From positions 36,502-100,501 of IMG/VR virus record IMGVR_UViG_3300042907_001518: 64,000 bases of DNA; one strand, given 5' to 3'. Under the pieces are notes generated by a model. That model made no database searches and had not been told where the DNA came from. It saw nothing but the letters and a program-made list of their open reading frames with translations. The stretch comes from a virus. This document shows, piece after piece, positions 11,662 through 25,660 of the stretch (within the stretch, counting starts at the first letter, position 1; every line of letters starts with the position of its first letter). The position numbers and the translations under genes are program-made.

Positions 11662-11701
11662 AAAAGAGGCAAGGGTCATGGTGGCTCTTGCCTTTTTTAT
11701 T
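11662..11701 (+). terminator. Intrinsic terminator
   Basis: GAGGCAAGGGTCA...TGGCTCTTGCCTT followed by a T run. Confidence 0.7.
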
Positions 11702-11815
11702 TGGGGAAAGTGGCTATTAAACTGGTCAATTATATATGGTTGGCTTGTTGAGTGTGGACCACCGGGCGTTTTTCAGAAAAATCTGGCATTATCTACAGAA
11801 AACAAAAAAACCCCC

Positions 11816-11893
11816 TAACTCCTTGTGGCATAAAGACTTACGACATATTCTCCCCCGCTTTTGCGTCGTAACTCCTTACTGGGCAATGGTTTA
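11816..11893. repeat. 78-bp twin-box element, copy 1
   Basis: TAACTCCTT-GTGGCAT-AAAGACTTA, 28 bp, TAACTCCTT-ACTGGGC-AATGGTTTA. Confidence 0.9.
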
Positions 11894-12038
11894 CAACAAA
11901 TGTTGAGATACTCAGATTTTTTGCCTGATTTGGCACGCGATTATTTTTTATTTTTTCAAAAGATTTCTCTTGCAATCTAAAGAATACTCTGTATAATGCC
12001 GATATAAGAAGAAGTAAGAAAGAAAGAAGGATAAGAAA

Positions 12039-12284
12039 ATGGTTTTCGAAACGCTGGACGATCTGAATCACTATATCTCGTATGCTGAACCGGATTCGAT
12101 CAACGGATTCCGAGTTGTTGGTGAATTGTTTGATGACTTGAGAGATACGGCTAACAGGGCTAGGGCTGATTGGTATCCTTTGTGCGATGCCTTCGGTTGC
12201 ATGGAAGAGTATATGATGGGAGAAGGTGAGTACCTTGAGATAGATGCGAATGGAGTGATTATTAATTCTAGCGTATACTTCTGA
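12039..12284 (+). CDS. Hypothetical early protein
   Basis: Purine-rich RBS and upstream TTGCAA..TATAAT promoter. Confidence 0.65.
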   Translation: MVFETLDDLNHYISYAEPDSINGFRVVGELFDDLRDTANRARADWYPLCDAFGCMEEYMMGEGEYLEIDANGVIINSSVYF

Positions 12285-12344
12285 ACAGTATTGACAATCT
12301 AAAAATATTCGGTATAATTCAGACATAAGGAAGAGAGAAAGATA

Positions 12345-12494
12345 ATGACCATCCAAGTACAACACACCATTCGTCGCCTAGTTGCTCGCCACGGATATTC
12401 GGCCACGTTTGTTCAGCATATGGGCGAGGGTATTAGCCTGTACAGTATCGGTGGTATCATGTATCGTATTCGTGGTGATGGTACGATTCTCTAA
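12345..12494 (+). CDS. Small hypothetical protein (49 aa); its stop codon is the first TAA of repeat copy 2
   Basis: MTIQVQHTIRRLVARHGYS...GDGTIL*, with its own TTGACA..TATAAT promoter and RBS. Confidence 0.6.
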   Translation: MTIQVQHTIRRLVARHGYSATFVQHMGEGISLYSIGGIMYRIRGDGTIL

Positions 12495-12569
12495 GTTGTT
12501 ACAGCATAAGGGCTTAGGGTAAGGCGGGCGGGCCAAATTCGTCGTAAGTACTTACCACACAACGACTTA
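12492..12569. repeat. 78-bp twin-box element, copy 2
   Basis: TAAGTTGTT-ACAGCAT-AAGGGCTTA, 28 bp, TAAGTACTT-ACCACAC-AACGACTTA. Confidence 0.9.
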
Positions 12570-12700
12570 TGACTACTAAATAATTATTCTATTTGGCATG
12601 AAATTATATTTGAGAAAATCCAAAGATTTCCCTTGCAATGGTCGATAATATCTGTATAATAAGAGCACAAGAGAAAAGGAAAGAGAAAAAGGAAAAGAAA

Positions 12701-12898
12701 ATGACAATCGAAGTTTTTGACAATCAGAAGATGACCATCGGATTTGTGAAGAGCCAGAATCAAATTGAAGGAATGAATATGGTTCGCCAGTATTTCCCCA
12801 ACGTGGGAAGTGTGGACGGTCAGAGTTACCTTCCGACCAATGATAGCCGTTGCAAGATGATTGTCCCTAATGTTTACTCTTGGGAGATTGTTCGATGA
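12701..12898 (+). CDS. Hypothetical protein, paralog of 14117-14302
   Basis: MTIEVF..TIGFV..FP.V..LP..D.RCK.I..NVY.W shared between the two. Confidence 0.7.
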   Translation: MTIEVFDNQKMTIGFVKSQNQIEGMNMVRQYFPNVGSVDGQSYLPTNDSRCKMIVPNVYSWEIVR

Positions 12899-13272
12899 AT
12901 AATCTAGATAAGATTTTCTGTGCTATGCGAAGCGGTAAGTATGGTAGCGTATTAGATACTAAGGGAAATGTTCATGCTGGCATTATCAACTCTATCATGA
13001 AGGAAGATGGTAGCGGTAAGAATTGGATTGTGACGGTATATAATCGCACGGCCAAGAATACGGTTTTCATTCACGCTAAGTAAGGGAATATAAATGTTTG
13101 ATATTAATATAGATTGGATGTGGATGGGTGTGGGATTTGTTGTTGGCATTGGTTGCTCTTGGCTTGTTTCTGACTTGGTTTTTTCTATAAGGAAGAAGTA
13201 AATGAATAATAATATTCTGTTTGGCATATGCTTTGCTTGTGGTTGTGTGTTGACATATGTTATCTCTTGACG

Positions 13273-13350
13273 TAAGATGTTGAGGGATAACGACTTAGGG
13301 CTAATCGGGCGGCGATTTCTTTACCTAAGTACTTGCAGCATATAGAGTTA
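13273..13350. repeat. 78-bp twin-box element, copy 3
   Basis: TAAGATGTT-GAGGGAT-AACGACTTA, 28 bp, TAAGTACTT-GCAGCAT-ATAGAGTTA. Confidence 0.9.
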
Positions 13351-13666
13351 CAGCTAATCTAGACGGCTAGCAAACCCTATGCCATAACTGTACGAATATG
13401 GTAGGATTTGTGTCAAATTCTCTTGACATAAAAATCTCTAGATTTCTCTTGCAAATTAAAGATTCGTCTGGTATAATGTCGATATAAGAGTAAGAGAGAA
13501 AGAAAGAGAAAGAAGATGATGAATAAGACTATGAAGAATGCAAGTAAGAGAATCAAGAATCTTGAGATTCGTGAAAAGGCATACGCTATGCCGATTGTTG
13601 TTAAGGATATGAAAGTGAATGATGAAATGGTTCGTAAGTTTTTTGAAAGCATGAAGGGTTAATAAA

Positions 13667-13867
13667 ATGAATAGCAAAAGACTCGAAACTAAGTTGAATA
13701 AGTTGGGATATAGCCTCTCCAAGAATGGGGATTTTTGGGTAATCAAGGCAGGATCAGACTACCCTGCATTTGCCCGCTATTGCGTTGATTTGACCGCTGT
13801 TCAGACGTTCATCACCGATGAGCAAGCGATGAAAATGTATCGGTCTGGTCGTTCGATTCCGGCTTGA
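13667..13867 (+). CDS. Hypothetical early protein
   Basis: ORF ends 2 bp before repeat copy 4. Confidence 0.6.
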   Translation: MNSKRLETKLNKLGYSLSKNGDFWVIKAGSDYPAFARYCVDLTAVQTFITDEQAMKMYRSGRSIPA

Positions 13868-13869
13868 TA

Positions 13870-13947
13870 TAAGTCCTTGCTGCTACAGCACTTAGGACGA
13901 GCCGGCGCCGCCGAATTTGACGTAACTCCTTTAGTACCAATACTTTA
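13870..13947. repeat. 78-bp twin-box element, copy 4 (plus a lone box at 14007-14031)
   Basis: TAAGTCCTT-GCTGCTA-CAGCACTTA, 28 bp, TAACTCCTT-TAGTACC-AATACTTTA. Confidence 0.9.
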
Positions 13948-14116
13948 CGACTATTTTTTCACGAAACCATGTGTCCATTGGAACGATGAAAAATATCTTT
14001 TCGACCTAAAGCCTTACAACATAAAGACTTAGGAAAAATCTAAAAATCTTTTAAAGATAGAATTTGACTTTAGCCGATAACTAAGATATAATTCAGCATA
14101 AGAAAGAGAGAATGAA

Positions 14117-14302
14117 ATGGTTATCGAAGTTTTCAAAGATGGTCGAACGATTGGTTTTGTGGTTGCAAAAGATAGGCTATCTTCGGTCGATCTGATCGTT
14201 AAGGCTTTCCCCCAAGTGGATCGTGTTGAGACAAATTCATCGCTCCCCAAGAGTGATCCACGATGCAAAAAAATCGCTGAAAATGTTTACGCTTGGGCTT
14301 GA
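14117..14302 (+). CDS. Hypothetical protein, paralog of 12701-12898
   Basis: Shared motifs; own promoter at 14064. Confidence 0.7.
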   Translation: MVIEVFKDGRTIGFVVAKDRLSSVDLIVKAFPQVDRVETNSSLPKSDPRCKKIAENVYAWA

Positions 14303-14353
14303 CCCACTATGCCAGACCTGATAGAATCCAACCAACACAGAAAAGGAAAGAAT

Positions 14354-14689
14354 ATGAAACAGAAATTTGAGATTATCGAAAACGCTAAGAAACAGGCCCG
14401 TATGTGCTTCCTTGGGATTGCTATCCCAACAGAAGTAAAGAATATTGATGGAGAAATGATTCAGGTTGAAAAGGTGATAAAGTTCAACCGTAAGGCTTTG
14501 AAGAATATCGGTAAGCGTAAGGCTGAAAAAGCCGATCCTAGGCTGATTGGTGGTGAAGATACCATGATCGTTCGGGCTGGAAAGCCGGGTTCGCGTGAAC
14601 GTGTTGAGGCTCTGACCATGCAGTATGGTGCTATCCTTGCTTGTGGTGAGGAAGTTTCGCCCTTCGCGTTCAAGGCTGATGACGAATGA
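14354..14689 (+). CDS. Hypothetical protein
   Basis: RBS AAAGGAAAG before MKQKFE; GKPGSRERVEAL motif. Confidence 0.6.
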   Translation: MKQKFEIIENAKKQARMCFLGIAIPTEVKNIDGEMIQVEKVIKFNRKALKNIGKRKAEKADPRLIGGEDTMIVRAGKPGSRERVEALTMQYGAILACGEEVSPFAFKADDE

Positions 14690-14797
14690 AAACGAAAAAA
14701 CTGTTCAGAAAATGAAGAAAGAAACCCAACGGGCTATTTCTCATGTTATGATGTTGGAAAAAATGTATTTGGAAATGATCAAACAAAAGGAAAAGAA

Positions 14798-15112
14798 ATG
14801 ACACACTCTGAAGCATACATGATGGTTCGCGGCAAGCGTGGCGTTATGCGTCGTAAGGTTGGTAACAATACCTATGCTGAAATCTTGCAGGATGGGTCGA
14901 TTGGTATCATGCTTCATAGTACGTATGTGGTAAAGATTCACACTGGCGATACATATACTATGCAAACGGGTGGGTGGTATACTGTTACTACAAAAGATAG
15001 AATCAATCAGTATGTTCCGGGACGAGTGTATCAAGCGGATGGGCAGTGGTACTATAAGCATCCTAAGGGCAAGACGTATGAATTCATCGACGGAATGGTA
15101 GTGGGGAATTGA
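14798..15112 (+). CDS. Hypothetical phage protein
   Basis: RKVGNNTY..LHST.VV..TGGW.TVTTKDRIN motif style of small phage early proteins. Confidence 0.65.
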   Translation: MTHSEAYMMVRGKRGVMRRKVGNNTYAEILQDGSIGIMLHSTYVVKIHTGDTYTMQTGGWYTVTTKDRINQYVPGRVYQADGQWYYKHPKGKTYEFIDGMVVGN

Positions 15113-15114
15113 CG

Positions 15115-15192
15115 TAAAGCCTTGCCACTAAAGAACTTAGGGCGAGGCCGCGCCGCCCCGCGAAGCGTAAGTGCTTATGCTGCAACAACTTA
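15115..15192. repeat. 78-bp twin-box element, copy 5
   Basis: TAAAGCCTT-GCCACTA-AAGAACTTA, 28 bp, TAAGTGCTT-ATGCTGC-AACAACTTA. Confidence 0.9.
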
Positions 15193-15525
15193 CGACGAAT
15201 CTTAACGCAACTCTCGTGCCAAAAATATTTTTGTTTTTTCCAAAGATTTCGCTTGCATTGGTCGATTATATCTGTATAATGACAGCATCACAAGGGAAAC
15301 CCATAAGGAAGTCGATAATGTATTCTTTCGAAGAAATCAACAGTATCCTTGATCAGATGGCACAGCAAGGTACAATTGAGCCTATGGTCGAGCCGATTGA
15401 CGATCCCAGCGAGGAAGTAAATTTTTGGGATTGGGCCGATGTGGTTGGTGCAGTTGACGATTTCGCTCCTCAGTCTATGGTTGACGAGGACGGTGAAGTA
15501 TGGTATGTTTCTTGAATAGGAGAAA

Positions 15526-15771
15526 ATGATGAGTCACCCTGACCCCCTTTATGATGCTGATAACTCTTATGAGGATGATATGAATTACGATGACCACAAT
15601 GATTTTTGGGGATTGCCCGAAAATGAGTTGGATGAACTGCAAGATGAGGAAGACGAGGAGAATGATTGGGATGATTCGTATGATGATAGTATGGATGGGG
15701 ATCATGAGAGTGGCCTATCTTCCGCTGGATGGGGAACCGATGAGGATTACGGCTACTATGGTGATGAGTGA
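15526..15771 (+). CDS. Highly acidic small protein
   Basis: D/E-rich; DGDHESGLSSAGWGTDEDYG; RBS AGGAG. Confidence 0.7.
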   Translation: MMSHPDPLYDADNSYEDDMNYDDHNDFWGLPENELDELQDEEDEENDWDDSYDDSMDGDHESGLSSAGWGTDEDYGYYGDE

Positions 15772-15803
15772 ATATTAATAGTTTAACTTTAAGGAAAAAA
15801 GAA

Positions 15804-16031
15804 ATGAAGTGCATTGTAACTCACACGGATACTTTTGCTGGTGAGGCTAACTACGGTTGGGTAAAGCGTTGGGAGTTTGTACCCAAGTATGAATCTCAGC
15901 GTAGCGTTATTCGCAAGGCCAAGGCTTTGGCCGGCTTTACGGGTGTAAAGTCTGAAACCGAAGATTATGGTGACGGCTATACCATTAAGCCTCGCGGCTA
16001 TGCTCAAATCATCTTTGTTGATTTTGAGTAA
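15804..16031 (+). CDS. Hypothetical phage protein
   Basis: TDTFAGEANYGWVKR motif; RBS AAGGA. Confidence 0.65.
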   Translation: MKCIVTHTDTFAGEANYGWVKRWEFVPKYESQRSVIRKAKALAGFTGVKSETEDYGDGYTIKPRGYAQIIFVDFE

Positions 16032-16045
16032 AGTTTTCCTCGTCG

Positions 16046-16123
16046 TAAACCCTTTGTACGTAAGCACTTAGGGCCGACGGGGCGCGCCGGCCTCGACGTA
16101 AGTCCTTTGATACCAAACACTTA
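16046..16123. repeat. 78-bp twin-box element, copy 6
   Basis: TAAACCCTT-TGTACGT-AAGCACTTA, 28 bp, TAAGTCCTT-TGATACC-AAACACTTA. Confidence 0.9.
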
Positions 16124-16234
16124 CGGCTAAAAAGATTTTTCTCTTTGGCATGGCATTATTTTTCAAGAATCCCTCTTGCATTGGTCGATAAATATGATAT
16201 GCTTAGGGTATCACAAGAGAAGAAAGGGTTAATC

Positions 16235-16498
16235 ATGAGTGTTGACGGAACCTATAACGGATACGCTAACTACCAGACTTGGAACGTTTGTCTGTGGATT
16301 GCCAATGATCAATTTCTGTATGGTCTGGCAAGTCAATGTGAGTCTTATAATGATTTTAAGATTTTACTGCGTGATATTTTTGACTCGAACGATATGAAGC
16401 ATGAAACGCCGGACAGCGTTTCTTGGAACGATAGCGGCATCAACCTTGCGGAATTGCAAGAGTTTTGGGTCGAAAATTTTTCTAAAGTTTGTGCTTGA
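16235..16498 (+). CDS. Hypothetical phage protein
   Basis: YNGYANYQTWNVCLWIAND motif of a common small phage family. Confidence 0.65.
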   Translation: MSVDGTYNGYANYQTWNVCLWIANDQFLYGLASQCESYNDFKILLRDIFDSNDMKHETPDSVSWNDSGINLAELQEFWVENFSKVCA

Positions 16499-16558
16499 CA
16501 AGTGTCGATAATAGGGTAGAATGGTGCTAAAGGGTTTTTCTAACTGAAGGAGTTTCTT

Positions 16559-16969
16559 ATGAACGACGTGATTTTGTTTGGTTTGATTTTTGCTGGTGTG
16601 GTTGCTTGTATGATTGCGTTCGGTGGCTTTCATATCTATCGTGGCGTTAACGGTAGCCTTGCTAATGCTCAGGTTGGAGAAGTTTATAACTTTGAATATC
16701 TCCAGCCGCATCATGGTGATCCGGTGCGAGTGCTTGCTAGGGTGATCGAACCTGCGTATACGCTTAGTGATGAGAGTATCCGTAGGCTGAATACTAAGAG
16801 CAACTATCGTATCAGTGATCCTGAGTTCAAGCGTACTCGCCACCTTGTAACGTGCGAGACTCCCAATGGTGAAGTGCGACAGTTCTATGCCGAGCGTGCT
16901 AAGAACGTGCGTCGTCCTCTTCTTGCGGGACTGCTCTTCCGTACAGGAACTGCACACCTGTTCGCGTGA
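16559..16969 (+). CDS. Membrane-anchored hypothetical protein
   Basis: N-terminal TM helix; RBS AAGGAG; promoter at 16495. Confidence 0.65.
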   Translation: MNDVILFGLIFAGVVACMIAFGGFHIYRGVNGSLANAQVGEVYNFEYLQPHHGDPVRVLARVIEPAYTLSDESIRRLNTKSNYRISDPEFKRTRHLVTCETPNGEVRQFYAERAKNVRRPLLAGLLFRTGTAHLFA

Positions 16970-16999
16970 ACGATTGTTCAGTTCGGTTAACCCTGGCCC

Positions 17000-17077
17000 T
17001 AAGTTGTTGCCACGCAATGACTTAGGGTTCGGGGGCGCCGCCGAGTTGGTCGTAACTCCTTATCTCATAAGGGCTTA
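17000..17077. repeat. 78-bp twin-box element, copy 7
   Basis: TAAGTTGTT-GCCACGC-AATGACTTA, 28 bp, TAACTCCTT-ATCTCAT-AAGGGCTTA. Confidence 0.9.
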
Positions 17078-17366
17078 CAGAATATTTAAATAATGCTTGA
17101 CAAAATGCCGATATAGTATATACTAGACACAACAGGAGACAGTATGCAAAAATATGCTTGGATAATTTGGGTAGGATGCGAGATTAAGGGAACTATAGAA
17201 GCATATAGTGCCTGGGAAGCAGAGGCAAAAGCAGTAGAAAAATTCGGCAAATTGGTTAGGGTTGAACGAGATTGCTAGTTTCACCTAATCCTACGGATTT
17301 GGGCTGGGTGGGTATAGTCAGCGAGAACCTCTTGACAAATGAATTTTAGCAGTGTAGGATAGACTT

Positions 17367-17645
17367 ATGGAATATGGATACGGCGAAGGGTTGTGGATCA
17401 ATGGCTCTCACTGGTATGGTGATCCGTATCATTTGTATTCTGATTTTACTACCAATTTTGATTTGAGTCCTAACCCTTTATATATTTATAATGATGGTGG
17501 ACAGAATCTCTATATCTTTTATAATGCTGTTCTCAAGCCAGATATCCAGCCCGTACCAGTACCCGAACCATCTTGCCTATTCTTGGCAGTATGCTCAATC
17601 TTAATGATCTTTTTTTTAAAGAAAAGGGTCTTGACAAGTCGATAA
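17367..17645 (+). CDS. PEP-CTERM sorting-domain protein
   Basis: C-terminal VPEP, hydrophobic helix (SCLFLAVCSILMIFFL), then KKR. Confidence 0.7.
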   Translation: MEYGYGEGLWINGSHWYGDPYHLYSDFTTNFDLSPNPLYIYNDGGQNLYIFYNAVLKPDIQPVPVPEPSCLFLAVCSILMIFFLKKRVLTSR

Positions 17646-17661
17646 TAGAGTGTAGAATGAT

Positions 17662-18097
17662 TGAAGAACAAGCAAACGCTTGTTGGCTGTGTCGGGCCGA
17701 GCAGCCGGTAAAAACGGTAGTTGATGTCCTAGGAAACGTCTTCTACAATCGGTCCTAACAATACAAACTTGCGTATGGTAGTTGCTACTACTAGAGAGAT
17801 AGCCCAGCAAACAGCGTCTGCATCTAATGGGTGTACGGGGTTGCCGACCTAGGCTATAGGAAGGCTTATGCTGCTCTCTATTGGGTTGGATTCCCGACAT
17901 ACGTTATAATACAACCAGTAACCGTCACCAAGAGCCAGACTAACCGGAACATGATGCTAGCAGTTCATCCGGTTACAGGGAGGTTTCCGTGGGCGGTTTC
18001 CACCAGTGTTTACCTTGCTCCAAGGGTTCAGAATATCGGAGTATTGGTGGATTATAGAATCGGATCGTAAAAGATTCGCTGGTTTTAATACAAAGGA
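17662..18097 (+). ncRNA. Candidate large structured non-coding RNA
   Basis: Follows promoter TTGACA(17631)..TAGAAT; no ORF with an RBS; many hairpins, including a tRNA-like domain at 17772-17903. Confidence 0.5.
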
Positions 18098-18858
18098 AAA
18101 AGAATGACTAAAGATGAAGCAATAATTAAGGTTCTCAAGGTTCTAAAGAATCCTATGCTGGTTATGAGTCCTGCTAAACAAGAGGCATTGACTTTAGCAG
18201 AAGAATACGGTATAATGGCTAAAGATTTGATTGAGAGTTGGTCGAATATAGCAATGAGGACATAATGACTGTTAACGAACTTATCGAGGCTCTTAACCAC
18301 TATCCCGGCAATATGAGGGTTCTTACTCTTGGATATGAGGGTGGATATGATGATGTGGGCATACGAACCGAAGAGATTGTGTTCAATGTTAATGATAAAG
18401 ACACTTGGTATTATGGGCCTCATGAATGTGTGAAGTATACCGATAGTGATGCTGGTACAAAATGTTTGATTGTTTGGAGGGGAAAATGATCTATCTTAAT
18501 CTTAATGAGATTGAGCGATTGGCCGAAATCGTATCCGAACTGGTTAAGTTGGGTATGAGTGTTACTGCTGAACTCAAATATGATAGGTGGCAGATAGAGG
18601 TATATAAGTAATGGAATGGATTAGTTTTCATGGACCACGACGCCCTATTAATGGCCAGAAGATTATCTATTATGGTGAGGCTATTGGTGTGTGGCGTGGA
18701 GTCTATAAAATAGATTACAATGATAAGTTCTGTATTCATATCATTCATTGCGGTGAATCGTGGGGTGCTGTAGACTATATGGATGCTCCATGGTGGATGC
18801 CAGATGAGGGACAAGATAAGCCAGCACCACCAGAGTTCGATTATCCACCAGATTATCC

Positions 18859-18936
18859 TAAGTGATTACTGTATAAGGACTTAGAGCGAATCGGGCGGGC
18901 CAAATTTGTCGTAAGTTCTTATCCTACAAGCACTTA
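18859..18936. repeat. 78-bp twin-box element, copy 8
   Basis: TAAGTGATT-ACTGTAT-AAGGACTTA, 28 bp, TAAGTTCTT-ATCCTAC-AAGCACTTA. Confidence 0.9.
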
Positions 18937-18956
18937 GGATTTTTTAAAGAACCCTA

Positions 18957-18985
18957 TTGACAAAAGCCGATAATAGTAGTATACT
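18957..18985 (+). promoter_or_regulatory. Sigma-70-type early promoter with GCCGATA in the spacer (representative of about 20)
   Basis: TTGACA-AAAGCCGATAATAGTAG-TATACT. Confidence 0.8.
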
Positions 18986-19172
18986 AGAACAAGACGATAG
19001 ATGAGGGCCGCTGGCAGAATGATATCAAAGAAGCCGCGGTTAAATGCAAAGCCGAGTATGGCATAACCCAATCTATTGTTTTTCCTAATCCTAGCGGATT
19101 GGCGTGAGTGGCTGTAGTCAGCGAATATCTAGTGGTCTTGACAACGATTGGTCGATAAGGTATACTATAAGC

Positions 19173-19598
19173 ATGAAACAGAACAAACTACATGGCGAAG
19201 TTCGATTTCACCTGAGTAATGGCCAGCATTATATGCACTGGCAAGTGAAAGTTAAGCAGGGTGGCGAGACTGTTGATGTCTATTATTATAACCCCAAAGA
19301 ATATCAGTTGGAAATGATTGGTTGTAAATTAGTGAATAAGCCTAATAAAGCCAAGAAAGTTCATGCTGCTGGTGTGCATGATGTTAGTGGGTGGGTGCGA
19401 TGTGAAGAAGTTATGTTGAGGAAGGATTTTCATCCGGCTCTACCTATTGACAATCTTGAGAAGTTGTTTTATAACCCATTAAGAGATCCATACTGGCGAC
19501 GAGAAAGTGACAATAGTGAGTTTATTTGGGACAATACCGAATACTCCACATTGATTACACAGGGCAAACAAGTTTACGTTTTAGAGGAAAGAACCTAA
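19173..19598 (+). CDS. Hypothetical protein; its stop codon is the first TAA of repeat copy 9
   Basis: Promoter at 19138; ATG close behind the -10 box (possibly leaderless). Confidence 0.65.
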   Translation: MKQNKLHGEVRFHLSNGQHYMHWQVKVKQGGETVDVYYYNPKEYQLEMIGCKLVNKPNKAKKVHAAGVHDVSGWVRCEEVMLRKDFHPALPIDNLEKLFYNPLRDPYWRRESDNSEFIWDNTEYSTLITQGKQVYVLEERT

Positions 19599-19673
19599 AG
19601 CCTTGCTGCTAAAAGACTTAGCACAAGGCGGGCCGGCCCCGCTCGTCATAACTCCTTATCTACCAACCACTTA
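19596..19673. repeat. 78-bp twin-box element, copy 9
   Basis: TAAAGCCTT-GCTGCTA-AAAGACTTA, 28 bp, TAACTCCTT-ATCTACC-AACCACTTA. Confidence 0.9.
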
Positions 19674-19876
19674 GAACAAATTTGAGAAATCTAGAAAAGG
19701 ATTCACGAACGGGGTTGACAGTGCCGATAAGTATAGTATACTGATAGCATCACACGACAAGACGACCGCAGATGCCAACAGCAGAAACCATCTGGCAGAC
19801 TCTTGACAAATGATGTTTGATAGGGTATAGTTACTTTACTTGGTTCGATAACACTTTTGGAAAGGTTAGGTTGATT

Positions 19877-20134
19877 ATGCGTACTTATGATTTTGCTGTT
19901 GCGGTTGCTTCTGACTCGCTGGATACTGAGGTGGTTGAGGATACGATCAAGCAGGCTCTTGCTGATGGTCTGCCCGATGGTACTCTTGTGGTTGTAAAGG
20001 CCCAGGGGATCAAGGATTATTCGGAGCAGGGTTGGAAGGTTGCTCGTAATCGTAAGTTTGGCGTGAGCGTCAAGCAGGCCGGTGATGGTCACAAGGCTAA
20101 GACTACTAAGGTTGAAGTTGAGACTGTTGCCTGA
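19877..20134 (+). CDS. Hypothetical protein
   Basis: MRTYDF start after AGGTT; followed by a terminator-like hairpin at 20157-20197. Confidence 0.6.
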   Translation: MRTYDFAVAVASDSLDTEVVEDTIKQALADGLPDGTLVVVKAQGIKDYSEQGWKVARNRKFGVSVKQAGDGHKAKTTKVEVETVA

Positions 20135-20199
20135 GTATAAAAATATGCTATAATATCCGATAGACCGCTGGTGTTGAACTGGCGGCTATCGGTTTTTAT

Positions 20200-20271
20200 G
20201 GCCCCATAGTTAAATGGATATAACAAGTGCCTTCTAAGCACTGGTTAGAGGTTCGATTCCTCTTGGGGCTA
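20200..20271 (+). tRNA. tRNA-Arg(TCT)
   Basis: Acceptor GGCCCCA/TGGGGCT; anticodon arm AGTGC-CTTCTAA-GCACT; GTTCGATTC T-loop. Confidence 0.9.
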
Positions 20272-20277
20272 CTTTTG

Positions 20278-20351
20278 GGGGGTGTAGATCAATCGGTTAG
20301 ATCGCCAGCCTGTCACGCTGGAGGTTGCGGGTTCGAGTCCCGTCACCCTCG
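20278..20351 (+). tRNA. tRNA-Asp(GTC)
   Basis: Anticodon arm CCAGC-CTGTCAC-GCTGG; full cloverleaf. Confidence 0.95.
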
Positions 20352-20358
20352 CTTGCTC

Positions 20359-20436
20359 TAAGTATATACTGCATAAGGACTTAGGGTTCGTCCGCGGGGC
20401 CTCGTTCGTCGTAACTCGTGATGAGACAAGAACTTA
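20359..20436. repeat. 78-bp twin-box element, copy 10
   Basis: TAAGTATAT-ACTGCAT-AAGGACTTA, 28 bp, TAACTCGTG-ATGAGAC-AAGAACTTA. Confidence 0.85.
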
Positions 20437-20517
20437 CGTCAAAAATATTTTTACCAAAGTTTTTCTCTTGACTGTGCCGATACCATAGTGTAGAATCGCT
20501 ATACATAGGAGACAATC

Positions 20518-21228
20518 ATGAAAACCGCAAATGGTAATGATAAGTTGGGTAAGGAAAACTGCATCGTAGTGAGTCGTCCCGTTGGCGATACTTGTCCTAG
20601 CGATTGTGATTTTCTCGGAAACGGATGCTATGCTGAGGATTTGGAAAATATCTATCCCGGTGTTCGTCCCGCTGGTATGCAAAATCTTATCACGGAAAAA
20701 AATCGTATTCGTGCCATGCTGGTCGATGCCGCTAAGAAAAATAAGGATGTCCGGTGGCATGAGCGTGGCGACTTTTTCAAGTATGGTGAACTTGACACTG
20801 AATATGTCGATAATGTACTGTGGGCTTGTGAGAGTATCTTGTCCAGTGGCGGTAGTCTGCCGACTATGTGGGCCTATACCCATATTTATGATGCTCGGTT
20901 GTCTACCGAACTTGGCAAGTATATCAATATGTATGCTAGTATTCATAATGGTGAAGATATGAAACAAGCAAAAGAGGCTGGTTTCAAGCATTTCGCATGG
21001 TGTGATAGTGATACTAAGATTGCTCCGAAGCGTCCTCGCAGTAAGGCTAAAGCCGACGCATGGAGAGCGGCACTGCCGAAACTGATTGTGCTGGAAGGTG
21101 AGAAGTTTATCACTTGCCCGGAAATTCGTCGTGGTCGTGGTGTTGTGACTTGCACCGAAAGTAAAAATAGTGTACACTGCGATTTGTGTCCGCGTGGTCT
21201 GGCTAATGTTTTGTTTCCATCTCACTAA
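20518..21228 (+). CDS. Gp88-like Cys-rich phage protein
   Basis: GNDKLG, TCPSDC..CYA, RWHERGDF, WAYTH, TCPE..TC..CDLC pattern. Confidence 0.6.
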   Translation: MKTANGNDKLGKENCIVVSRPVGDTCPSDCDFLGNGCYAEDLENIYPGVRPAGMQNLITEKNRIRAMLVDAAKKNKDVRWHERGDFFKYGELDTEYVDNVLWACESILSSGGSLPTMWAYTHIYDARLSTELGKYINMYASIHNGEDMKQAKEAGFKHFAWCDSDTKIAPKRPRSKAKADAWRAALPKLIVLEGEKFITCPEIRRGRGVVTCTESKNSVHCDLCPRGLANVLFPSH

Positions 21229-21235
21229 GGAACGG

Positions 21236-21769
21236 ATGATGACATACGTTTTAGAAAAGTATCATTCTTGCGGTAGCCGGTCTGACTTTTATACTCTCAA
21301 GGATAGTATCTATGGTTTCAAAACTTTTAAAAACAAAGATGATGCTGAACGTGCTAGGTCAACTCAAATAGTATTAGCCGAGCATGATCTTGCTCCGAAA
21401 GTATACAGTGAAGTAGGCCGGATTAAGGTTGGAAAAAGCAAAAAACGTCAACAATTAAGTAATTGGGGATATATCACAGAGGTTGCGGAATTGCCCGGCT
21501 GTGGTGGAAACGCTTGTGAATGTGGAGACTGTGAGTATCTTGAAGATGAGTTATTTGATGAAATAGAAAATTTAAAATTTGAGATTAATGAAACCACTAA
21601 CTACTATTTTTCAGATGCTCACGTTGGGAATATAGGATATGTACGCAGAGGGATTCATAAACTTTTGGTTTGCATAGATACTGGATATGAAAGCGTAAGC
21701 ACTTATGATCCAGACGATGATGATTGTGATTGTTCGATATGTATGGCGGCAGCGAAAGGCAACAAATAA
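21236..21769 (+). CDS. Minimal protein-kinase-like protein (paralog of 52406-52939)
   Basis: LAPKVY, GYITE, DAHVGN (catalytic-loop-like), VCIDTG (DFG-like). Confidence 0.6.
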   Translation: MMTYVLEKYHSCGSRSDFYTLKDSIYGFKTFKNKDDAERARSTQIVLAEHDLAPKVYSEVGRIKVGKSKKRQQLSNWGYITEVAELPGCGGNACECGDCEYLEDELFDEIENLKFEINETTNYYFSDAHVGNIGYVRRGIHKLLVCIDTGYESVSTYDPDDDDCDCSICMAAAKGNK

Positions 21770-22016
21770 TGAAATATTATATTAAATGTGGAACACTACA
21801 ACTAAAATATAGTACAGATAAAAATCCTATTGACGCAGCAGTAACTACTCTGGGAGAAAGTAATAAATTCGATGTGTTGGGTGAGCATTTCTATATTGAT
21901 GAACGTGGTTTTAGGGATTATGCTAGTGCTGACAAACTCACGCAGGTAATTAAGTTAAGTAAGGTGTGTAGATTAGCCGGTTGGGAACTAAACAGAGAAG
22001 ACGAATAAACAACCCG

Positions 22017-22094
22017 TAAACCCTTTGTGTGTAAGCACTTAGGGCTTGCGGGGCCGGCCCGGTTTGACGTAAGTCCTTATCTCATAACAACTTA
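22017..22094. repeat. 78-bp twin-box element, copy 11
   Basis: TAAACCCTT-TGTGTGT-AAGCACTTA, 28 bp, TAAGTCCTT-ATCTCAT-AACAACTTA. Confidence 0.9.
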
Positions 22095-22594
22095 CGGAAA
22101 ATCTTAAAAATCTCTCAAGTTCCACCCGTAGGCTGTCGATATATAGAATATGATCACAAGAATCAAGGTTAGATGGGTATTGACAAGAAGTGAACGTATG
22201 ATACAATGGGTGGGTGTTTTGATTGCTTTATTCGGTTTGGCCTATACTGGTGTAAAGGATTATCAGAAGGGGGAAATCAAACTTCCGACGATTCAAAAAC
22301 CCTTGACAAAAACAGTTTATCCTATACAATATTGCTTAATGGCTTACGATCCTAACTTAGAAAAGGTTTTTTACTTACACGAAAATGGTCAATGGTATGA
22401 TTACGCTCCACAACAACGACGATATGCGTCCTCGCCGTAAATACAGCAATATTAAGATTCAGACTAAAAAATCATGGGAAGTACCTACGGGTCACAGGGA
22501 ACACCGTGATACGCTCATGGACAATCGCCCGAAGCGTCAGCGTACCAGAAAAGATATTGACAGGAGTTGGCGTAAAGAGTATGATATGTAGATT

Positions 22595-22667
22595 GCCGAT
22601 GTAACTCAGTTGGTAGAGTAGCAGTTTTGTAAACTGCCTGTCGTCGGTTCGACTCCGACCATCGGCT
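22595..22667 (+). tRNA. tRNA-Thr(TGT)
   Basis: GCCGATG/CATCGGC acceptor; GCAGT-TTTGTAA-ACTGC anticodon arm. Confidence 0.95.
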
Positions 22668-22672
22668 CTTGT

Positions 22673-22744
22673 TGCCCGATAGCACAATGGTACTGCAACG
22701 GATTTTGGTTCCGTCGTTTCTAGGTTCGAATCCTAGTCGGGCAT
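22673..22744 (+). tRNA. tRNA-Gln(TTG)
   Basis: TGCCCGA/TCGGGCA acceptor; ACGGA-TTTTGGT-TCCGT anticodon arm. Confidence 0.9.
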
Positions 22745-22810
22745 TAAATTATGGTTCGAATCTTGACTCTCAGATGGTGTATAATTATTATATACTAGGA
22801 GTCAAGAACT

Positions 22811-23245
22811 ATGAAATTAAAAGATCAAATTTTACAACTAAAAGCTGAGGGTTATTCTTATAGACAAATACAAGATAAGCTTGGGTGTTCAAAAGGCACA
22901 ATAGCATATCATGTAGGAATAGGCCAAAAAGATAAGACTAAAAACAGAACTAAAGAATACAGAACAAAAGTAAGAAAATATATACAAGAATATAAAGCTG
23001 GAAAAAAATGCTCAGACTGTAAAGAAGATTATCCCTATTGGCTGTTAGAATTTGATCATATCGGAGACGATAAGAATTTCAATATCTCAGAATTTTCAGA
23101 ACACAGTACGTCAATAGAAATAATAAAAGAAGAAATTAGTAAGTGTGAGCTGGTTTGTTGTAATTGTCATAGAAATAGAACATTTATGAGACAAACTAGT
23201 GATGCTAGATATGTTGGTTTAGAGTTTTGTAAATACGAAGAATGA
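22811..23245 (+). CDS. Free-standing HNH homing endonuclease with N-terminal HTH, inside the tRNA cluster
   Basis: GYSYRQIQDKLGCSKGTIAYH; CSDC..LEFDH..KCELVCCNCHRNRT. Confidence 0.85.
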   Translation: MKLKDQILQLKAEGYSYRQIQDKLGCSKGTIAYHVGIGQKDKTKNRTKEYRTKVRKYIQEYKAGKKCSDCKEDYPYWLLEFDHIGDDKNFNISEFSEHSTSIEIIKEEISKCELVCCNCHRNRTFMRQTSDARYVGLEFCKYEE

Positions 23246-23249
23246 TTGA

Positions 23250-23321
23250 TGCCCGATAGCACAATGGTAGTGCGGCAAACTGTTAATTTGTAGGTTCTAG
23301 GTTCGAGTCCTAGTCGGGCAG
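23250..23321 (+). tRNA. tRNA-Asn(GTT)
   Basis: GCAAA-CTGTTAA-TTTGT anticodon arm; G discriminator. Confidence 0.9.
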
Positions 23322-23349
23322 TTCGGAGGCTGGCGATGAGTTTCGGTGT

Positions 23350-23422
23350 GGCCCTATCGTCTAGTGGACTAGGACAACGGATTTTCGTTCCGTTTACCAG
23401 GGTTCGAATCCCTGTAGGGTCA
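23350..23422 (+). tRNA. tRNA-Glu(TTC)
   Basis: GTCTAGTGGACTAGGAC D arm; ACGGA-TTTTCGT-TCCGT anticodon arm. Confidence 0.9.
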
Positions 23423-23475
23423 CTAAAGTTTTAGGATTGACAAGCCGATAAAGATATGGTATACTAGCACACGAT

Positions 23476-23548
23476 GGGCCTTTAGCTCAACTGGCAGAGC
23501 AAGGAGCTTTTAACTCTTAGGTTGTGGGTTCGAGTCCCACAGGGCCCA
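23476..23548 (+). tRNA. tRNA-Lys(TTT)
   Basis: AGGAG-CTTTTAA-CTCTT anticodon arm; own promoter at 23437. Confidence 0.95.
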
Positions 23549-23597
23549 TTGACAGTTTGACCGGTTTGGTGTATAATAGTTTCAAAGGAGAAAGGCA

Positions 23598-23780
23598 ATG
23601 GCACGATATGATGACATCGATTCTTATTATGACCACGGTTATGATTATGACAATATCGCTAGAGACTGCGATGACCTGTATACATGCGACGAGGAATCTT
23701 TTGACGATGACGCTGGCAACGATGAAAACAAGTGGGAAAACTACTACCATAACATAGCAGACGAGTTGATTGAAGAATAA
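23598..23780 (+). CDS. Highly acidic small protein
   Basis: D/E/Y-rich; RBS AAGGAG. Confidence 0.65.
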   Translation: MARYDDIDSYYDHGYDYDNIARDCDDLYTCDEESFDDDAGNDENKWENYYHNIADELIEE

Positions 23781-23791
23781 GCCTTCTCTTC

Positions 23792-23880
23792 GGAATGAAT
23801 GCCACTTGGTGGGACAAGTATTTTATAATAAGAATTATCCTTTCTTTCTTTTCTAGTGGTTCGAATCCACCATTCGTTCT
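23792..23880 (+). ncRNA. tRNA-like element or tRNA pseudogene
   Basis: GGAATGAATG/CATTCGTTCT closing stem; T arm GTGG-TTCGAAT-CCAC; no recognisable anticodon arm. Confidence 0.35.
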
Positions 23881-23885
23881 TTTTT

Positions 23886-24398
23886 ATGAGTAATATTTTT
23901 AATCAGTCTATTGAGGATGTTCGTAAGACAGTTGATGGAAGATATATCCAAGGTGCTAGCCACACCTGTCATGTACTGAATCATAAGGCTAGAAATAAGA
24001 TTATTATCAAGGCTGTTTGTGATCTAAGAAAAATAGCAGATACTTTTGATAGCATTGCCTGCTGCGGTGTAAGTGGATTGATGGTAGTTCCACAAATCGC
24101 AGAGTTACTCAACAAGAATATTGTTGTGGTAAGAAAGGGGGAACAATGCTATTCAGAGTTTCGTACCGAGGGAGTGGCTCCTTTTCAATATATTATATTA
24201 GACGATTTAATCTGTTCTGGCTCGACCGTTAAACATATTAAAAGAGTTATCAAGGATGAATACTCGCGTTCTCATTGTGTTGGGGTCTATTGCTATCTGC
24301 CTAGTGAATGTGCTTATCGTGACAATAAGGATGGTTCTAAACTGTGCCAGCGAGATCTTGGGATTACGCTCTTAAACCTAGGCCACACAAAGACTTAG
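23886..24398 (+). CDS. Type I phosphoribosyltransferase
   Basis: PRPP-binding motif YIILDDLICSGST; VVVRK loop. Confidence 0.8.
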   Translation: MSNIFNQSIEDVRKTVDGRYIQGASHTCHVLNHKARNKIIIKAVCDLRKIADTFDSIACCGVSGLMVVPQIAELLNKNIVVVRKGEQCYSEFRTEGVAPFQYIILDDLICSGSTVKHIKRVIKDEYSRSHCVGVYCYLPSECAYRDNKDGSKLCQRDLGITLLNLGHTKT

Positions 24399-24450
24399 GA
24401 CTAGGGCGGCCGGCCCGTCAAAACGTAACTCCTTACGCCACAACGACTTA
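24373..24450. repeat. 78-bp twin-box element, copy 12 (box 1 overlaps the PRT C-terminus)
   Basis: TAAACCTAG-GCCACAC-AAAGACTTA, 28 bp, TAACTCCTT-ACGCCAC-AACGACTTA. Confidence 0.85.
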
Positions 24451-24551
24451 CGCCAAAAAATTTTCCCACAAGTTTTCCGCTTGACAAGTCGATAACATAC
24501 TGTAGAATGATAGCATACGAGTGAGAAGTTAACCCACGAAGGAGTTTGATT

Positions 24552-25496
24552 ATGCCTGCTGCTGTTGAAAAGATGATGTTTGTTGGTGAGACGCCTTGGC
24601 ATGGCCTTGGAAATAGCGTTGACGAGGGTATCACGGTCAATGATGCTATCGTTGCTGCTGGTTTGGATTGGGAAGTTGGTCTGAAGGACTTGCAGACCGT
24701 TGACGGTACGCCCGTTAACCATCGTGCAACCTATCGCAAGAGTGATGGTAGCATCCTTGGCGTTGTCGGGCCTCGCTATACACCTCTCCAGAATAAGGAT
24801 GCGTTCGATTGGTTCCAGCCTTTCCTTGATGCTAACGAGTGTTCGATCCATACTGCTGGTTCGCTGCATCTGGGTCAAAAGGTTTGGGTGCTTGCTCAAC
24901 TCAACCGCGACAATAGCGAGATTGTTCCGGGTGACGAGGTAAGCAAGTTTATCCTGCTGAGTAATAGCCACGATGGTACAACGGCTATTCGTGTCGGATA
25001 CACTCCGATTCGTGTTGTGTGCGTGAACACGCTGTCATATGCTCACAAGCATGCGAACAGCCAACTGATTCGTATTCGTCATACTCGCTCCAGCCAGAAG
25101 AATCTGGAACAAGTCCGCGATATTATGGATAATATTAACGCTGGTTTTGAGGCTACTGCGGAACAGTATCGGTTCCTCGCTAGTAAGAGTTTTAACCAGA
25201 ATGATATTGAGAAGTATGTTAAGGTTGTGTTGAATATTAAGGGTGCTGATGAGGATATCAAGACTCGTACCCGTAATATTATGGACGATATTCTCGCCCG
25301 TATCGAAGGCCCGAAGCAGACTGCGGCTAATGTTCGCGGTACTTGGTGGGCAGCGTATAATGGGTTCAATGAATATCTGAACTATGGTAAGGGTCGCACG
25401 ACCGACAACCGACTCGATAGCCTCTGGTTCGGCCAGAACGCTAATGAGAATAATAAGGCGTTGGAATCTGCTCTGGAGTTTGCCAACGCTATCTAA
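24552..25496 (+). CDS. DUF932 family phage/plasmid protein
   Basis: PWHGLG, AGLDWEV, YTPLQN, NSHDG, TPIRVVCVNTL, GTWWAAYNG motifs. Confidence 0.9.
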   Translation: MPAAVEKMMFVGETPWHGLGNSVDEGITVNDAIVAAGLDWEVGLKDLQTVDGTPVNHRATYRKSDGSILGVVGPRYTPLQNKDAFDWFQPFLDANECSIHTAGSLHLGQKVWVLAQLNRDNSEIVPGDEVSKFILLSNSHDGTTAIRVGYTPIRVVCVNTLSYAHKHANSQLIRIRHTRSSQKNLEQVRDIMDNINAGFEATAEQYRFLASKSFNQNDIEKYVKVVLNIKGADEDIKTRTRNIMDDILARIEGPKQTAANVRGTWWAAYNGFNEYLNYGKGRTTDNRLDSLWFGQNANENNKALESALEFANAI

Positions 25497-25519
25497 TACT
25501 CCTTTCGTGGGGATTGTGG

Positions 25520-25571
25520 GAGAGGGCCGTGGCTGGGAAACCGGCTGCGGCCTTCTCTTTTATTTTTTTTT
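25520..25571 (+). terminator. Intrinsic terminator
   Basis: GAGGGCCGTGGCTGG-GAAA-CCGGCTGCGGCCTTC followed by a T-rich tract. Confidence 0.8.
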
Positions 25572-25582
25572 AAGATTTGACA

Positions 25583-25660
25583 TAAGTACTTACCACATAA
25601 GGACTTACGACACGGCCGGCCCGCAAATTTCGTCCTAAGTTGAGTAGCCACAAGGACTTA
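25583..25660. repeat. 78-bp twin-box element, copy 13 (plus a lone box at 25731-25755)
   Basis: TAAGTACTT-ACCACAT-AAGGACTTA, 28 bp, TAAGTTGAG-TAGCCAC-AAGGACTTA. Confidence 0.9.

Follow-up and report, generated by a model that had tools for sequence, protein, structure and literature searches.

Twin-box DNA elements phased to the promoters of an early region in uncultured freshwater phages: candidate boundary operators of early transcription

In Cluster A mycobacteriophages such as L5 and Bxb1, the immunity repressor binds to stoperators, of which more than 20 and up to about 30 copies per genome are located in short intergenic spaces in an orientation tied to transcription. Stoperators are thought to stop elongating RNA polymerase, and both the motif and its factor differ between phage subgroups (PMC9283540, PMC6550527). 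The T4-type phages RB49 and phi1 carry PeSL (promoter-early stem-loop) cassettes, which combine a promoter with a stable terminating stem-loop and mediate recombination and mini-circle formation (PMC2839356). Cluster O mycobacteriophages, in turn, harbor more than 30 copies of a 17-bp dyad repeat, TGTTCGGNNNCCGAACA, of unknown function; it is dispersed and palindromic, with many copies being intergenic, and was likened to stoperators by the authors who described it (PMC4351075). Here, we analyzed a 64,000-nucleotide stretch of a virus record (IMGVR_UViG_3300042907_001518, positions 36,502 to 100,501; hereafter, the window), in which 13 elements with two palindromic boxes each punctuate an early gene region. 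Like stoperators, these twin boxes occur in many intergenic copies oriented with transcription, and their types differ between phage groups. However, stoperators are single 13-bp asymmetric sites that are bound by a monomer and found genome-wide in temperate phages, whereas each twin-box element spans 90 bp, consists of two dyads and a GC core, and keeps a phased distance to the next promoter; its occurrence is limited to one early region, in phages that encode no integrase and in which no repressor gene was found. With the PeSL cassettes, the twin boxes share the character of repeated regulatory punctuation between small early genes, a GC-rich component, and an arrangement in which the stop codon of the upstream gene is followed by an AT-rich tract and then by a strong sigma70 promoter (PMC2839356). 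In contrast to PeSL, the twin-box repeat is located upstream of the promoter, shows no selected stem-loop, comprises two dyads at a fixed 53 bp, and does not mark synteny breakpoints. The Cluster O repeat differs in being a single short dyad with 1/3 of its copies inside genes and no orientation bias, and it possesses neither a twin geometry nor a GC core or a fixed relation to promoters (PMC4351075).

The original prediction had listed 13 twin-box copies in the window, and our analysis confirmed the start coordinate of every one of them (Table 1). The skeleton TAA-N19-TTA-N28-TAA-N19-TTA was matched 13 times, compared with 0.04 matches expected from 100 shuffles, and scanning the whole 100,501-bp record with a box weight matrix confined the boxes to window positions 11816-25755, in agreement with the restricted distribution that had been proposed. 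All the copies (13/13) share one orientation. Apart from the twin elements, two solo boxes were identified in the window; at about 10 other loci, solo boxes are found at the same promoter offset as the one at 25731-25755. Each element indeed contains two 25-bp boxes, as described, but their fuller extent is a dyad of about 37 bp per box, T.G.C.-TAA..CCTT-N7-AAGGACTTA-.G.C.A, and the conserved positions of the entire element run from -5 to +84 (about 90 bp in all). The core of about 16 bp between the boxes is GC-rich, as had been noted, but its supposed self-complementarity is no more than base composition gives. Similarly, the spacing that was described as invariant is nearly but not strictly so, as 389 of the 402 close box pairs across the family (97%) are 53 bp apart. 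At about 5 helical turns, this distance brings both dyads onto one face of the helix. The palindromes deviate from perfect symmetry in a systematic manner, with TAAAC/GTTTA variants in the outer half-sites and ACTTA/TAAGT kept in the inner ones.

Table 1. Twin-box elements, solo boxes, and associated promoters in the early region (window coordinates)
Feature	Coordinates	Strand	Remarks
Twin-box element 1 (type A)	11816..11893	+	67.8 bits; box TAA is the stop of ORF 11678-11818
Twin-box element 2	12492..12569	+	90.4 bits; box TAA is the stop of g12345
Twin-box element 3	13273..13350	+	59.2 bits
Twin-box element 4	13870..13947	+	91.4 bits; upstream ORF ends at 13867
Solo box	14007..14031	+	25.8 bits; 32 bp upstream of the -35 hexamer at 14064
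Twin-box element 5	15115..15192	+	99.6 bits
Twin-box element 6	16046..16123	+	96.5 bits
Twin-box element 7	17000..17077	+	82.6 bits; -35 hexamer 19 bp downstream
Twin-box element 8	18859..18936	+	87.4 bits; -35 hexamer 20 bp downstream
Twin-box element 9	19596..19673	+	92.1 bits; orthologous junction occupied in 19/19 relatives
Twin-box element 10	20359..20436	+	76.7 bits; 6 bp after tRNA-Asp; junction occupied in 23/23 relatives
Twin-box element 11	22017..22094	+	99.8 bits; junction occupied in 20/20 relatives
Twin-box element 12	24373..24450	+	76.4 bits; junction occupied in 15/15 relatives
Twin-box element 13	25583..25660	+	80.3 bits; directly after terminator 25518-25559
Solo box	25731..25755	+	At about +1 of promoter 25696-25724
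13 sigma70-type promoters following elements	11970..25724	+	
-35 hexamer starts	11970, 12633, 13449, 14064, 15253, 16176, 17097		
-35 hexamer starts, continued	18957, 19715, 20468, 22180, 24481, 25696		

The placement of the elements is tied to gene ends and promoters. The stop codons that had been assigned to the first TAA of a box, to the interior or edge of box 1, or to a position 2 bp ahead of it are located as claimed, and family-wide the upstream ORFs end mostly at -4 (TGA), +1 (TAA), or +24 (TAG). A fresh promoter, which was said to follow most copies, is of the sigma70 type and present within 19-116 bp of 13/13 copies in the window; two of these promoters (15253 and 16176) were located through their alignment with promoter repeat family D7. 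Across the family, a sigma70 promoter was identified within 150 bp downstream of 75% of the copies, as opposed to 6% on the other side, and the elements reach from the upstream stop codon to the A/T-rich UP-like tract of that next promoter. At loci chosen by the neighboring protein and not by the element, 374 of 391 elements point in the same direction as the gene. Moreover, the distance between the element's end and the -35 hexamer clusters at 19-21, 29-32, and 40-43 bp, around preferred offsets of 20, 30-31, and 41 bp, and this phasing survives collapse of the copies to 144 sequence clusters (vector strength of 0.41-0.54 at periods of 10-11.5 bp; 99.9th percentile of the null, 0.22). Such a 10.5-bp ladder could also arise, with no element-bound factor touching RNA polymerase, if the number of UP-like subsites in the linker simply varied from one to three.

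The elements are widespread among phages, with at least 608 distinct copies on about 190 contigs, and the phages that bear them are a large group of uncultured freshwater phages. Complete genomes of 223-238 kb carry 15-17 copies, all inside one 18-20 kb region. Gene order is largely conserved among relatives, and the elements are found at the same junctions (19/19, 23/23, and 20/20 relatives at three junctions), while their presence inside operons was 0/11 and 0/19. A scan of one genome from each of 185,579 species found no copy in isolate bacterial genomes; the 12 true matches were all located on contigs of metagenome-assembled genomes (MAGs) with inconsistent taxonomy and several copies each, and a further 6 matches were attributable to chance. 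In window positions 11000-27000, Rfam covariance models detected tRNAs only, at E up to 1. Paired imperfect palindromes with a linker at operon 3' ends are also a feature of REP/BIME elements, which are hairpin-forming repeats of enterobacterial host chromosomes linked to RAYT (Y1) transposases. Identity with REP/BIME was rejected, as the species scan yielded no host copies, no Y1 transposase (PF01797) was found in 4 complete genomes, and hairpin covariation was not detected.

Comparison with sister phages revealed a different twin box (CTGCCAAAATGGCAG, a GC core, and a repeat) at the same junctions, referred to here as type B, with 10-19 copies per genome. The two types almost never mix in one genome: 177 loci are A only, 13 are B only, and 1 is truly mixed. 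The genes between the elements are mosaic and 90-100% identical across types A and B, and both types occur in the same samples and exchange genes. That the types are rarely mixed despite these mosaic genes suggests a type-specific binding factor. When 4 type-A and 4 type-B genomes were compared, no gene proved to be present throughout one type and missing from the other, and no binding protein emerged. In addition, one genome carries a hybrid type C, in which a type-A box is combined with half a type-B motif, and this hybrid makes a separate factor for each type less plausible.

The elements directly follow stop codons and a tRNA gene in a region where canonical terminators are rare, which would be compatible with a role in RNA, namely in terminating early transcripts, in their processing by an RNase, or in stabilizing their 3' ends; T7 RNase III sites and REP/BIME elements are parallels for such a role. 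The self-complementary sequences and the folding z-scores of about -2.1 point in the same direction, but these scores are equal on both strands and no common structure emerged. Among 405 distinct copies, Watson-Crick pairing equaled the column-composition expectation in all three pairing models, the highest mutual-information pairs were all adjacent columns, and TAAAC was accompanied by a complementary GTTTA in the same box in 0 of 134 cases. Because covariation is absent and complementary variants are avoided, the twin-box element is a double-stranded DNA site and not an RNA hairpin. The strand that carries the wobble-compatible variants differs between box 1 and box 2, and this, as well as the lack of an Rfam match, further argues against a role in RNA, which we regard as highly unlikely. 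Specifically, an intrinsic (Rho-independent) terminator was rejected: there is no U-tract, terminator-like scores were obtained for only 6 of 608 elements (1%) in the sense and for 6 in the antisense orientation, and the core folding energy is that of the column-shuffled control (-8.30 vs. -8.22). A canonical terminator precedes the element in only 6% of copies, and the region has a single strong intrinsic terminator (25518-25559), which is itself located upstream of element 13. The original prediction had also considered recombination sites that shuffle gene cassettes, comparable to PeSL elements or the attC sites of integrons. Relatives do differ in the order of some small gene groups (e.g. 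L104, L017, and L098), and an element is present at 61% of synteny breakpoints (63/103); however, conserved adjacencies carry one almost as often (132/249, 53%; odds ratio 1.4, p=0.19), overall gene order is largely conserved, and the elements occupy fixed orthologous junctions. The copies are only about 65% identical, which is too low for efficient homologous exchange, and attC-type structure covariation was not detected. Neither a tyrosine recombinase nor a serine recombinase or Y1 transposase was found in 4 complete genomes, and a search for PF00589 that detected it in 14/14 control genomes gave no match in the window's record or in 4 complete type-A genomes. An integron attC/cassette array was rejected on the grounds that an IntI-type recombinase gene, compensatory changes, and breakpoint enrichment are all missing, and cassette shuffling is the least probable of the explanations considered.

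Two further explanations were considered. The elements might serve a purpose apart from transcription, either as phased sites in the first-entering DNA (for stepwise entry, protection, or condensation), possibly in a long terminal repeat, or as hot spots of replication or recombination. Confinement to one 14-20 kb region and the rigid geometry with its GC core agree with such a role, but neither the tight association with gene ends and promoters nor the polarity with transcription or the 10.5-bp periodicity of the distance to the -35 hexamer would be anticipated for an entry or packaging signal, and we consider such a role quite improbable. Alternatively, a host nucleoid protein, e.g. a homodimeric IHF- or Fis-like DNA bender, might use the elements as upstream sites with an architectural or activating function; it would shape the DNA ahead of the UP element and enhance the early promoters from DNA entry on. 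At rrnB P1, lambda PL, and Mu Pe, Fis or IHF sites are located on one helix face just upstream of the UP element or the -35 hexamer, where paired sites bend the DNA, and the protein sites of the phi29 p4/p6 switch reportedly also lie just upstream of strong promoters. To our knowledge, none of these systems is repeated 13-17 times as unit boundaries or displays mutually exclusive types. The twin-box elements likewise adjoin a UP-like A/T tract and are in helical phase with the -35 hexamer, and the phages encode no HU/IHF homologue, whereas a host factor would be there at time zero. The half-boxes fit YAA-N4-TTR at +3 to +12 from the box center, a geometry that we take to resemble that of the IHF core. 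The likeness to the IHF core in the original prediction held only in part: compared with the IHF consensus WATCAANNNNTTR, the right half of box 2 contains CAA-N4-TTA (C at position 69 in 62%, AA and TTA in more than 89%), but in box 1 the position corresponding to this C mostly has T or A, and the WATC part shows no conservation (at most 0.2 bit at the WAT positions). The sequences do not conform to a Fis site, which has G at -7 and C at +7. Furthermore, many promoters of equal strength in the region lack an element, none is present upstream of the first early operon, and no copies were found in isolate bacterial genomes. If one host supplied both factors, mixing of types A and B should be neutral, yet the two types share samples and exchange genes and almost never mix in one genome. 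Taken with these observations, a host nucleoid protein appears to be an unlikely occupant.

Our preferred, albeit tentative, reading is that the array represents boundary operators for early transcription, through which one factor would coordinate about 13-17 early units; we assign this a probability of roughly 0.45. The dyads without covariation, the 53-bp ruler, the polarity, and the promoter phasing fit the phased protein-binding array or transcription roadblock that the original prediction had offered as an alternative to shuffling. Each element would provide a docking site on duplex DNA, with two dyads of about 37 bp and a GC-rich spacer of fixed length, and its occupant would most likely be two dimers or one tetramer of a sequence-specific protein. 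Such sites would be present at every boundary between early units transcribed by the host RNA polymerase, where the bound factor could act against read-through into the following promoter, as a switch of the strong early promoters, or in both ways. With promoters this close to consensus, early transcription should start ahead of the synthesis of any phage protein, so that a factor made by the phage could come into play only afterwards. Switching would most likely take the form of a timed shut-off, in a mode similar to that of the mycobacteriophage stoperators.

The different putative docking sequences at the same places in sister phages point to an undescribed system of early-gene control. A broader proposal, which we consider possible but rather doubtful, is that lytic jumbo phages possess a hitherto unknown specificity system with the twin boxes as its cis half; the arrays of boundary operators would co-evolve with a trans factor and thereby give rise to incompatibility types (A, B, and the hybrid C) among co-circulating, recombining phages. 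If this were true, each genome would have to carry one type at all of its approximately 15 early-unit boundaries, and the types would be an analogue of immunity groups that governs the early program of non-lysogenizing phages.

The twin-box array is a much larger phenomenon than the original prediction, made from the sequence of the window alone, could have seen. All 13 copies that it proposed were recovered with exact coordinates, and the skeleton TAA-N19-TTA-N28-TAA-N19-TTA gave 13 matches in the window, compared with 0.04 expected (maximum 1) in dinucleotide-preserving shuffles of the same search. When a 25-bp box matrix was applied to the whole 100,501-bp record, boxes were found at 11,816-25,755 only, in line with the claim that no copies lie outside approximately 11.8-25.8 kb, and two solo boxes were detected within this range. 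The record, a single virus record of which the window spans bases 36,502-100,501 and which has a CheckV completeness of 73%, belongs to a tailed phage encoding a terminase, a portal, a sigma factor, rIIA, a DNA ligase, 10 tRNA genes, and one tmRNA gene. Its terminase shares approximately 25% identity with Microcystis and Bacillus phage terminases, and the genome is distant from all cultured phages; in the cultured-phage collection, a megablast search with the element region returned nothing and a blastn search with one element returned chance 25-bp matches only. The element region itself comprises small genes, all on the + strand, with a very dense set of near-consensus sigma70 promoters.

Elements of the kind found in the window (hereafter type A) are widespread among related viruses. 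A pattern scan of IMG/VR identified at least 119 stretches, mostly multi-copy, in which a 90-column weight matrix (threshold of at least 25 bits; best score on shuffled loci, -31 bits) found at least 437 copies, and the same matrix yielded at least 608 distinct type-A copies over all loci fetched. Five complete genomes of 223-238 kb contained 9-14 strict pattern matches each, and the matrix scan, run on three of these, recovered 15-17; in the complete genomes, every copy lay inside one 18-20 kb region and none elsewhere. A scan covering 185,579 species of bacteria and archaea, with one genome per species, returned 18 loci, of which 6 were chance matches and the other 12 were short MAG contigs of inconsistent taxonomy, most of them multi-copy and several from lakes (Baikal, Mendota, and Lanier), which we read as mis-binned phage DNA. 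Since only chance matches and apparently mis-binned contigs were present among these species, an origin as a host REP or MITE was ruled out. An Rfam search with the element matched zero families, and literature searches with the motif strings found nothing.

The information content of the type-A element spans positions -5 to +84. The left half reads T.G.C(G)-TAA(G/A)(T/C)CCTT-N7-AAGGACTTA-(G)G.C.A and is followed by a core of eight bases, all G/C (G36 91%, C43 80%), and by the right half T.G.CG-TAAGTNCTTA-N5-CAA..ACTTA-.G.C.A, a pattern from which each box emerges as a dyad of approximately 37 bp and the whole element as a larger dyad. The spacing, predicted to be invariant, was 53 bp in 389 of the 402 close box pairs, with exceptions at 52 bp (7 pairs) and at other values (6 pairs).

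To ask whether the element acts as DNA or RNA, three pairing models were examined, namely pairing within box 1 or box 2, pairing of box 1 with box 2, and pairing of the spacer on itself. Across 405 distinct copies, the Watson-Crick frequency at each column pair equaled the product of the column compositions under all three models, and the forty top mutual-information pairs were nearly all adjacent or next-but-one columns, with no base-pairing partners among them. The common outer variant TAAAC was accompanied by its complement GTTTA within one box in 0 of 134 cases and was depleted alongside GTTTA in the partner box, and wobble-compatible variants pointed to opposite strands in box 1 and box 2. 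The central 34 nt folded no better than column-shuffled controls (-8.30 vs -8.22 kcal/mol), and whole-element folding gave z of approximately -2.1 on both strands, with heterogeneous shapes. The absence of covariation, together with heterogeneous and strand-equal folding, led us to reject an RNA or single-strand hairpin, whether within a box, between the boxes, or at the central core. Dyad symmetry without selection for pairing thus indicates a double-stranded site that would be recognized by a putative symmetric protein, and the protein-site alternative of the original prediction holds on this evidence.

The cassette-shuffling alternative fared differently. Mapping the early proteins of the window onto related loci revealed a largely conserved gene order, with an element at the same junctions throughout: g19173/g19871 (19 of 19 loci), g19871/g20518 (23 of 23), g21769/g22180 (20 of 20), and g23856/g24546 (15 of 15). 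The within-operon junctions g16235/g16559, g21236/g21769, and g18265/g18611 carried an element in 0/11, 0/19, and 0/10 cases, respectively. Module reordering had been expected to break at the elements; they were found at 63 of 103 rearranged adjacencies vs 132 of 249 conserved ones (odds ratio 1.4, p=0.19). Moreover, four complete genomes lack genes for tyrosine recombinases, serine recombinases, and Y1 transposases, and these breakpoint statistics and missing genes together led us to reject cassette recombination. An HNH endonuclease gene lies amid the tRNA genes of the window, and its homologues occupy varying positions and strands in relatives, as for a mobile homing gene.

The elements are polar. 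In 80 loci fetched via a GP88-like protein, a choice hence made without regard to the element, 374 of 391 copies were oriented with the neighboring GP88-like protein gene. As predicted, a promoter usually follows: a sigma70 promoter matching the consensus at 10 or more of 12 bases was identified within 150 bp downstream of 75% of the copies, vs one directed away on the opposite side of only 6%. Upstream ORFs end at -4 (TGA, within the conserved TTGACG arm), +1 (the box TAA), or +24 (TAG). A canonical terminator was located within 120 nt upstream of only 6% of the copies and, where present, precedes the element; the identity of the element itself as an intrinsic terminator was tested and rejected. 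Distances between the end of the element and the -35 hexamer peaked at 19-21, 29-32, and 40-43 bp, a non-random pattern that persisted in 144 sequence clusters, with a vector strength of 0.41-0.54 at periods of 10-11.5 bp vs a 99.9th-percentile null of 0.22; the gaps in the window are 19, 20, 30, 31, 35, 41, 52, 60, 63, 76, 85, 98, and 116 bp. The linker runs from an A-tract through a T-tract to CAAG and, judged by the UP consensus, appears to resemble an UP element.

Several further features accompany the early promoters. Nearly all of those in the window share a G(N)CGATA(A/C)T box between -35 and -10, with a UP-like A/T tract upstream. Some promoters are preceded by a further repeat, GTGGC.ATAGTCAGCCAAAA, and in relatives the related words AGCCAGC(G/C)AAA and GTGCCAAA stand ahead of the UP-like tract. 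Solo boxes have no single preferred position, except for approximately ten located at about +1 of a promoter, which may be orthologous. The last early promoter listed below starts an ORF-less stretch of approximately 90 nt that has a solo box at its start, contains more TAAGT/ACTTA words, closes with a CTAAG...CTTAG hairpin and a subsequent T-run, and may be a small RNA; a solo box occurs at the same promoter offset in approximately ten related loci.

Features of the early region and of alternative element types (window positions unless a related locus, L, or compared genome, G, is named)
Feature	Location	Strand	Remarks
First early-region gene	11140-11343	+	67 aa, very basic
Early promoters with shared box	11970-25724		
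49-aa basic protein	12345-12494	+	pI 10.2; stop codon is the TAA of element 2
Solo boxes	14,007; 25,731		25-bp box matrix
Conserved ORF-less region	17640-18100		promoter-driven
GTGGC repeat	19095-19127; 25842-25874; 26981-27013		
HNH endonuclease gene	22811-23245	+	
Terminator	25518-25559		upstream of its element
Promoter of ORF-less stretch	25696-25724		
ORF-less stretch	25725-25830		
Type-B carriers	L145, L173, L174, L176, L196, L205, L206; G006, G008, G009, G010		
Type-C examples	L160: 5863-5924, 8114-8175, 13785-13846		

Approximately one-quarter of the independently fetched relatives lack any type-A element. Type-B elements, which occupy junctions that carry type A in the window, read c-TGCCAAAATGGCA-G, a 14-bp GC-rich core, and C-TGCCAAAATGGCA-g, with a 29-bp period and a 16-bp gap, containing the core, between the two motif copies. 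The promoter mostly follows 24-25 or 13-16 bp further on and is of the same kind as that found after type-A elements in relatives. Four type-B genomes (122-224 kb) had their 10-19 copies confined to a single 13-20 kb region, with zero type-A copies, and four type-A genomes contained zero type-B copies. Among 217 loci, 177 carried type A only, 13 type B only, and a single one (L105) was truly mixed; a second locus flagged as mixed was a chance match. Gene content is mosaic across the types: the type-B locus L145 has genes in common with the type-A window (g20518, 93%; g18486, 100%; and g24546, 90% identical), and some type-A relatives are more distant than this. Both types co-occur in samples such as IMG sample 3300002835. 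Type C, found in L160 of the 195-kb genome G007, combines a single type-A box with a CGGCCGCAC core and a TGCCAAAA half-motif, TGCCA(A/T)AA; G007 has zero A-A or B-B twin elements. This comparison revealed a conserved dyad-GC core-dyad architecture at a conserved position, with a replaceable recognition sequence. Each genome uses one element type throughout, as was nearly always seen among the loci, the outcome expected of a trans factor specific to each type. With genes still exchanged across types and mixing almost absent, we favor a phage-encoded factor over a host-encoded one. The main rival reading, in which the elements would serve a host architectural activator, seems to us unlikely.

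None of the searches for this putative factor recovered it. Conserved early proteins returned no informative and no DNA-binding match in Pfam, PHROGs, or PDB sequences, and phage-encoded HU/IHF was rejected as the factor, its homologues not being found in these phages. Presence/absence profiling of four type-A vs four type-B genomes identified two type-A-restricted small basic proteins, one of 49 aa and a 96-aa family, neither of which occurs in every complete type-A genome. The 49-aa protein is confined to type-A genomes, although two complete ones, G003 and G004, lack it; its sequences in the carriers are 92-97% identical, compared with 40-70% for its neighbors. The 67-aa first early protein, conserved in 8 of 8 genomes compared and in both types, has an N-terminal pattern like the GcrA helix-turn-helix (language-model look-alike score of 0.84), a weak lead. 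The ORF-less region listed in the table, which contains no credible ORF, retains 85-93% DNA identity across G001, G003, and G008, with much lower conservation of the flanking protein genes; it fits a structured RNA gene, had no Rfam match, and, being found in both types A and B, is not the type determinant.

Among known systems, Cluster A mycobacteriophage stoperators come nearest in behavior; they are present in many copies, intergenic, and oriented with transcription, and their sites and repressors vary by subgroup (PMC9283540; PMC6550527). Unlike the twin boxes, however, stoperators are single 13-bp asymmetric monomer sites of temperate phages. PeSL cassettes likewise place a stop codon, an AT tract, and a promoter in succession but possess a real terminator stem-loop and undergo recombination (PMC2839356). 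The dispersed and unexplained 17-bp dyad repeat of Cluster O is without orientation, twin geometry, or a promoter link (PMC4351075).

We consider that the elements may be boundary operators for early transcription units, a reading to which we assign a probability of approximately 45%; they could insulate the units, coordinate the switching of their promoters, or both. To our knowledge, early-gene organization and shut-off in large lytic phages are known from a few model phages only. Here, a clade of abundant uncultured freshwater phages follows a strict and readily recognizable grammar of stop codon, twin-box site, UP-like tract, and consensus promoter, and its interchangeable site types, placed at the same junctions and not mixed within a genome, provide a ready means of recognizing early regions in phage genomes from metagenomes. 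The clade also offers a natural experiment in which cis sites and their putative factor would change jointly across approximately 15 positions at once, and the 90-bp element is a defined bait for isolating that factor. Should host RNA polymerase be blocked or switched at these sites, synthetic biology may further gain compact, orthogonal insulators from them.
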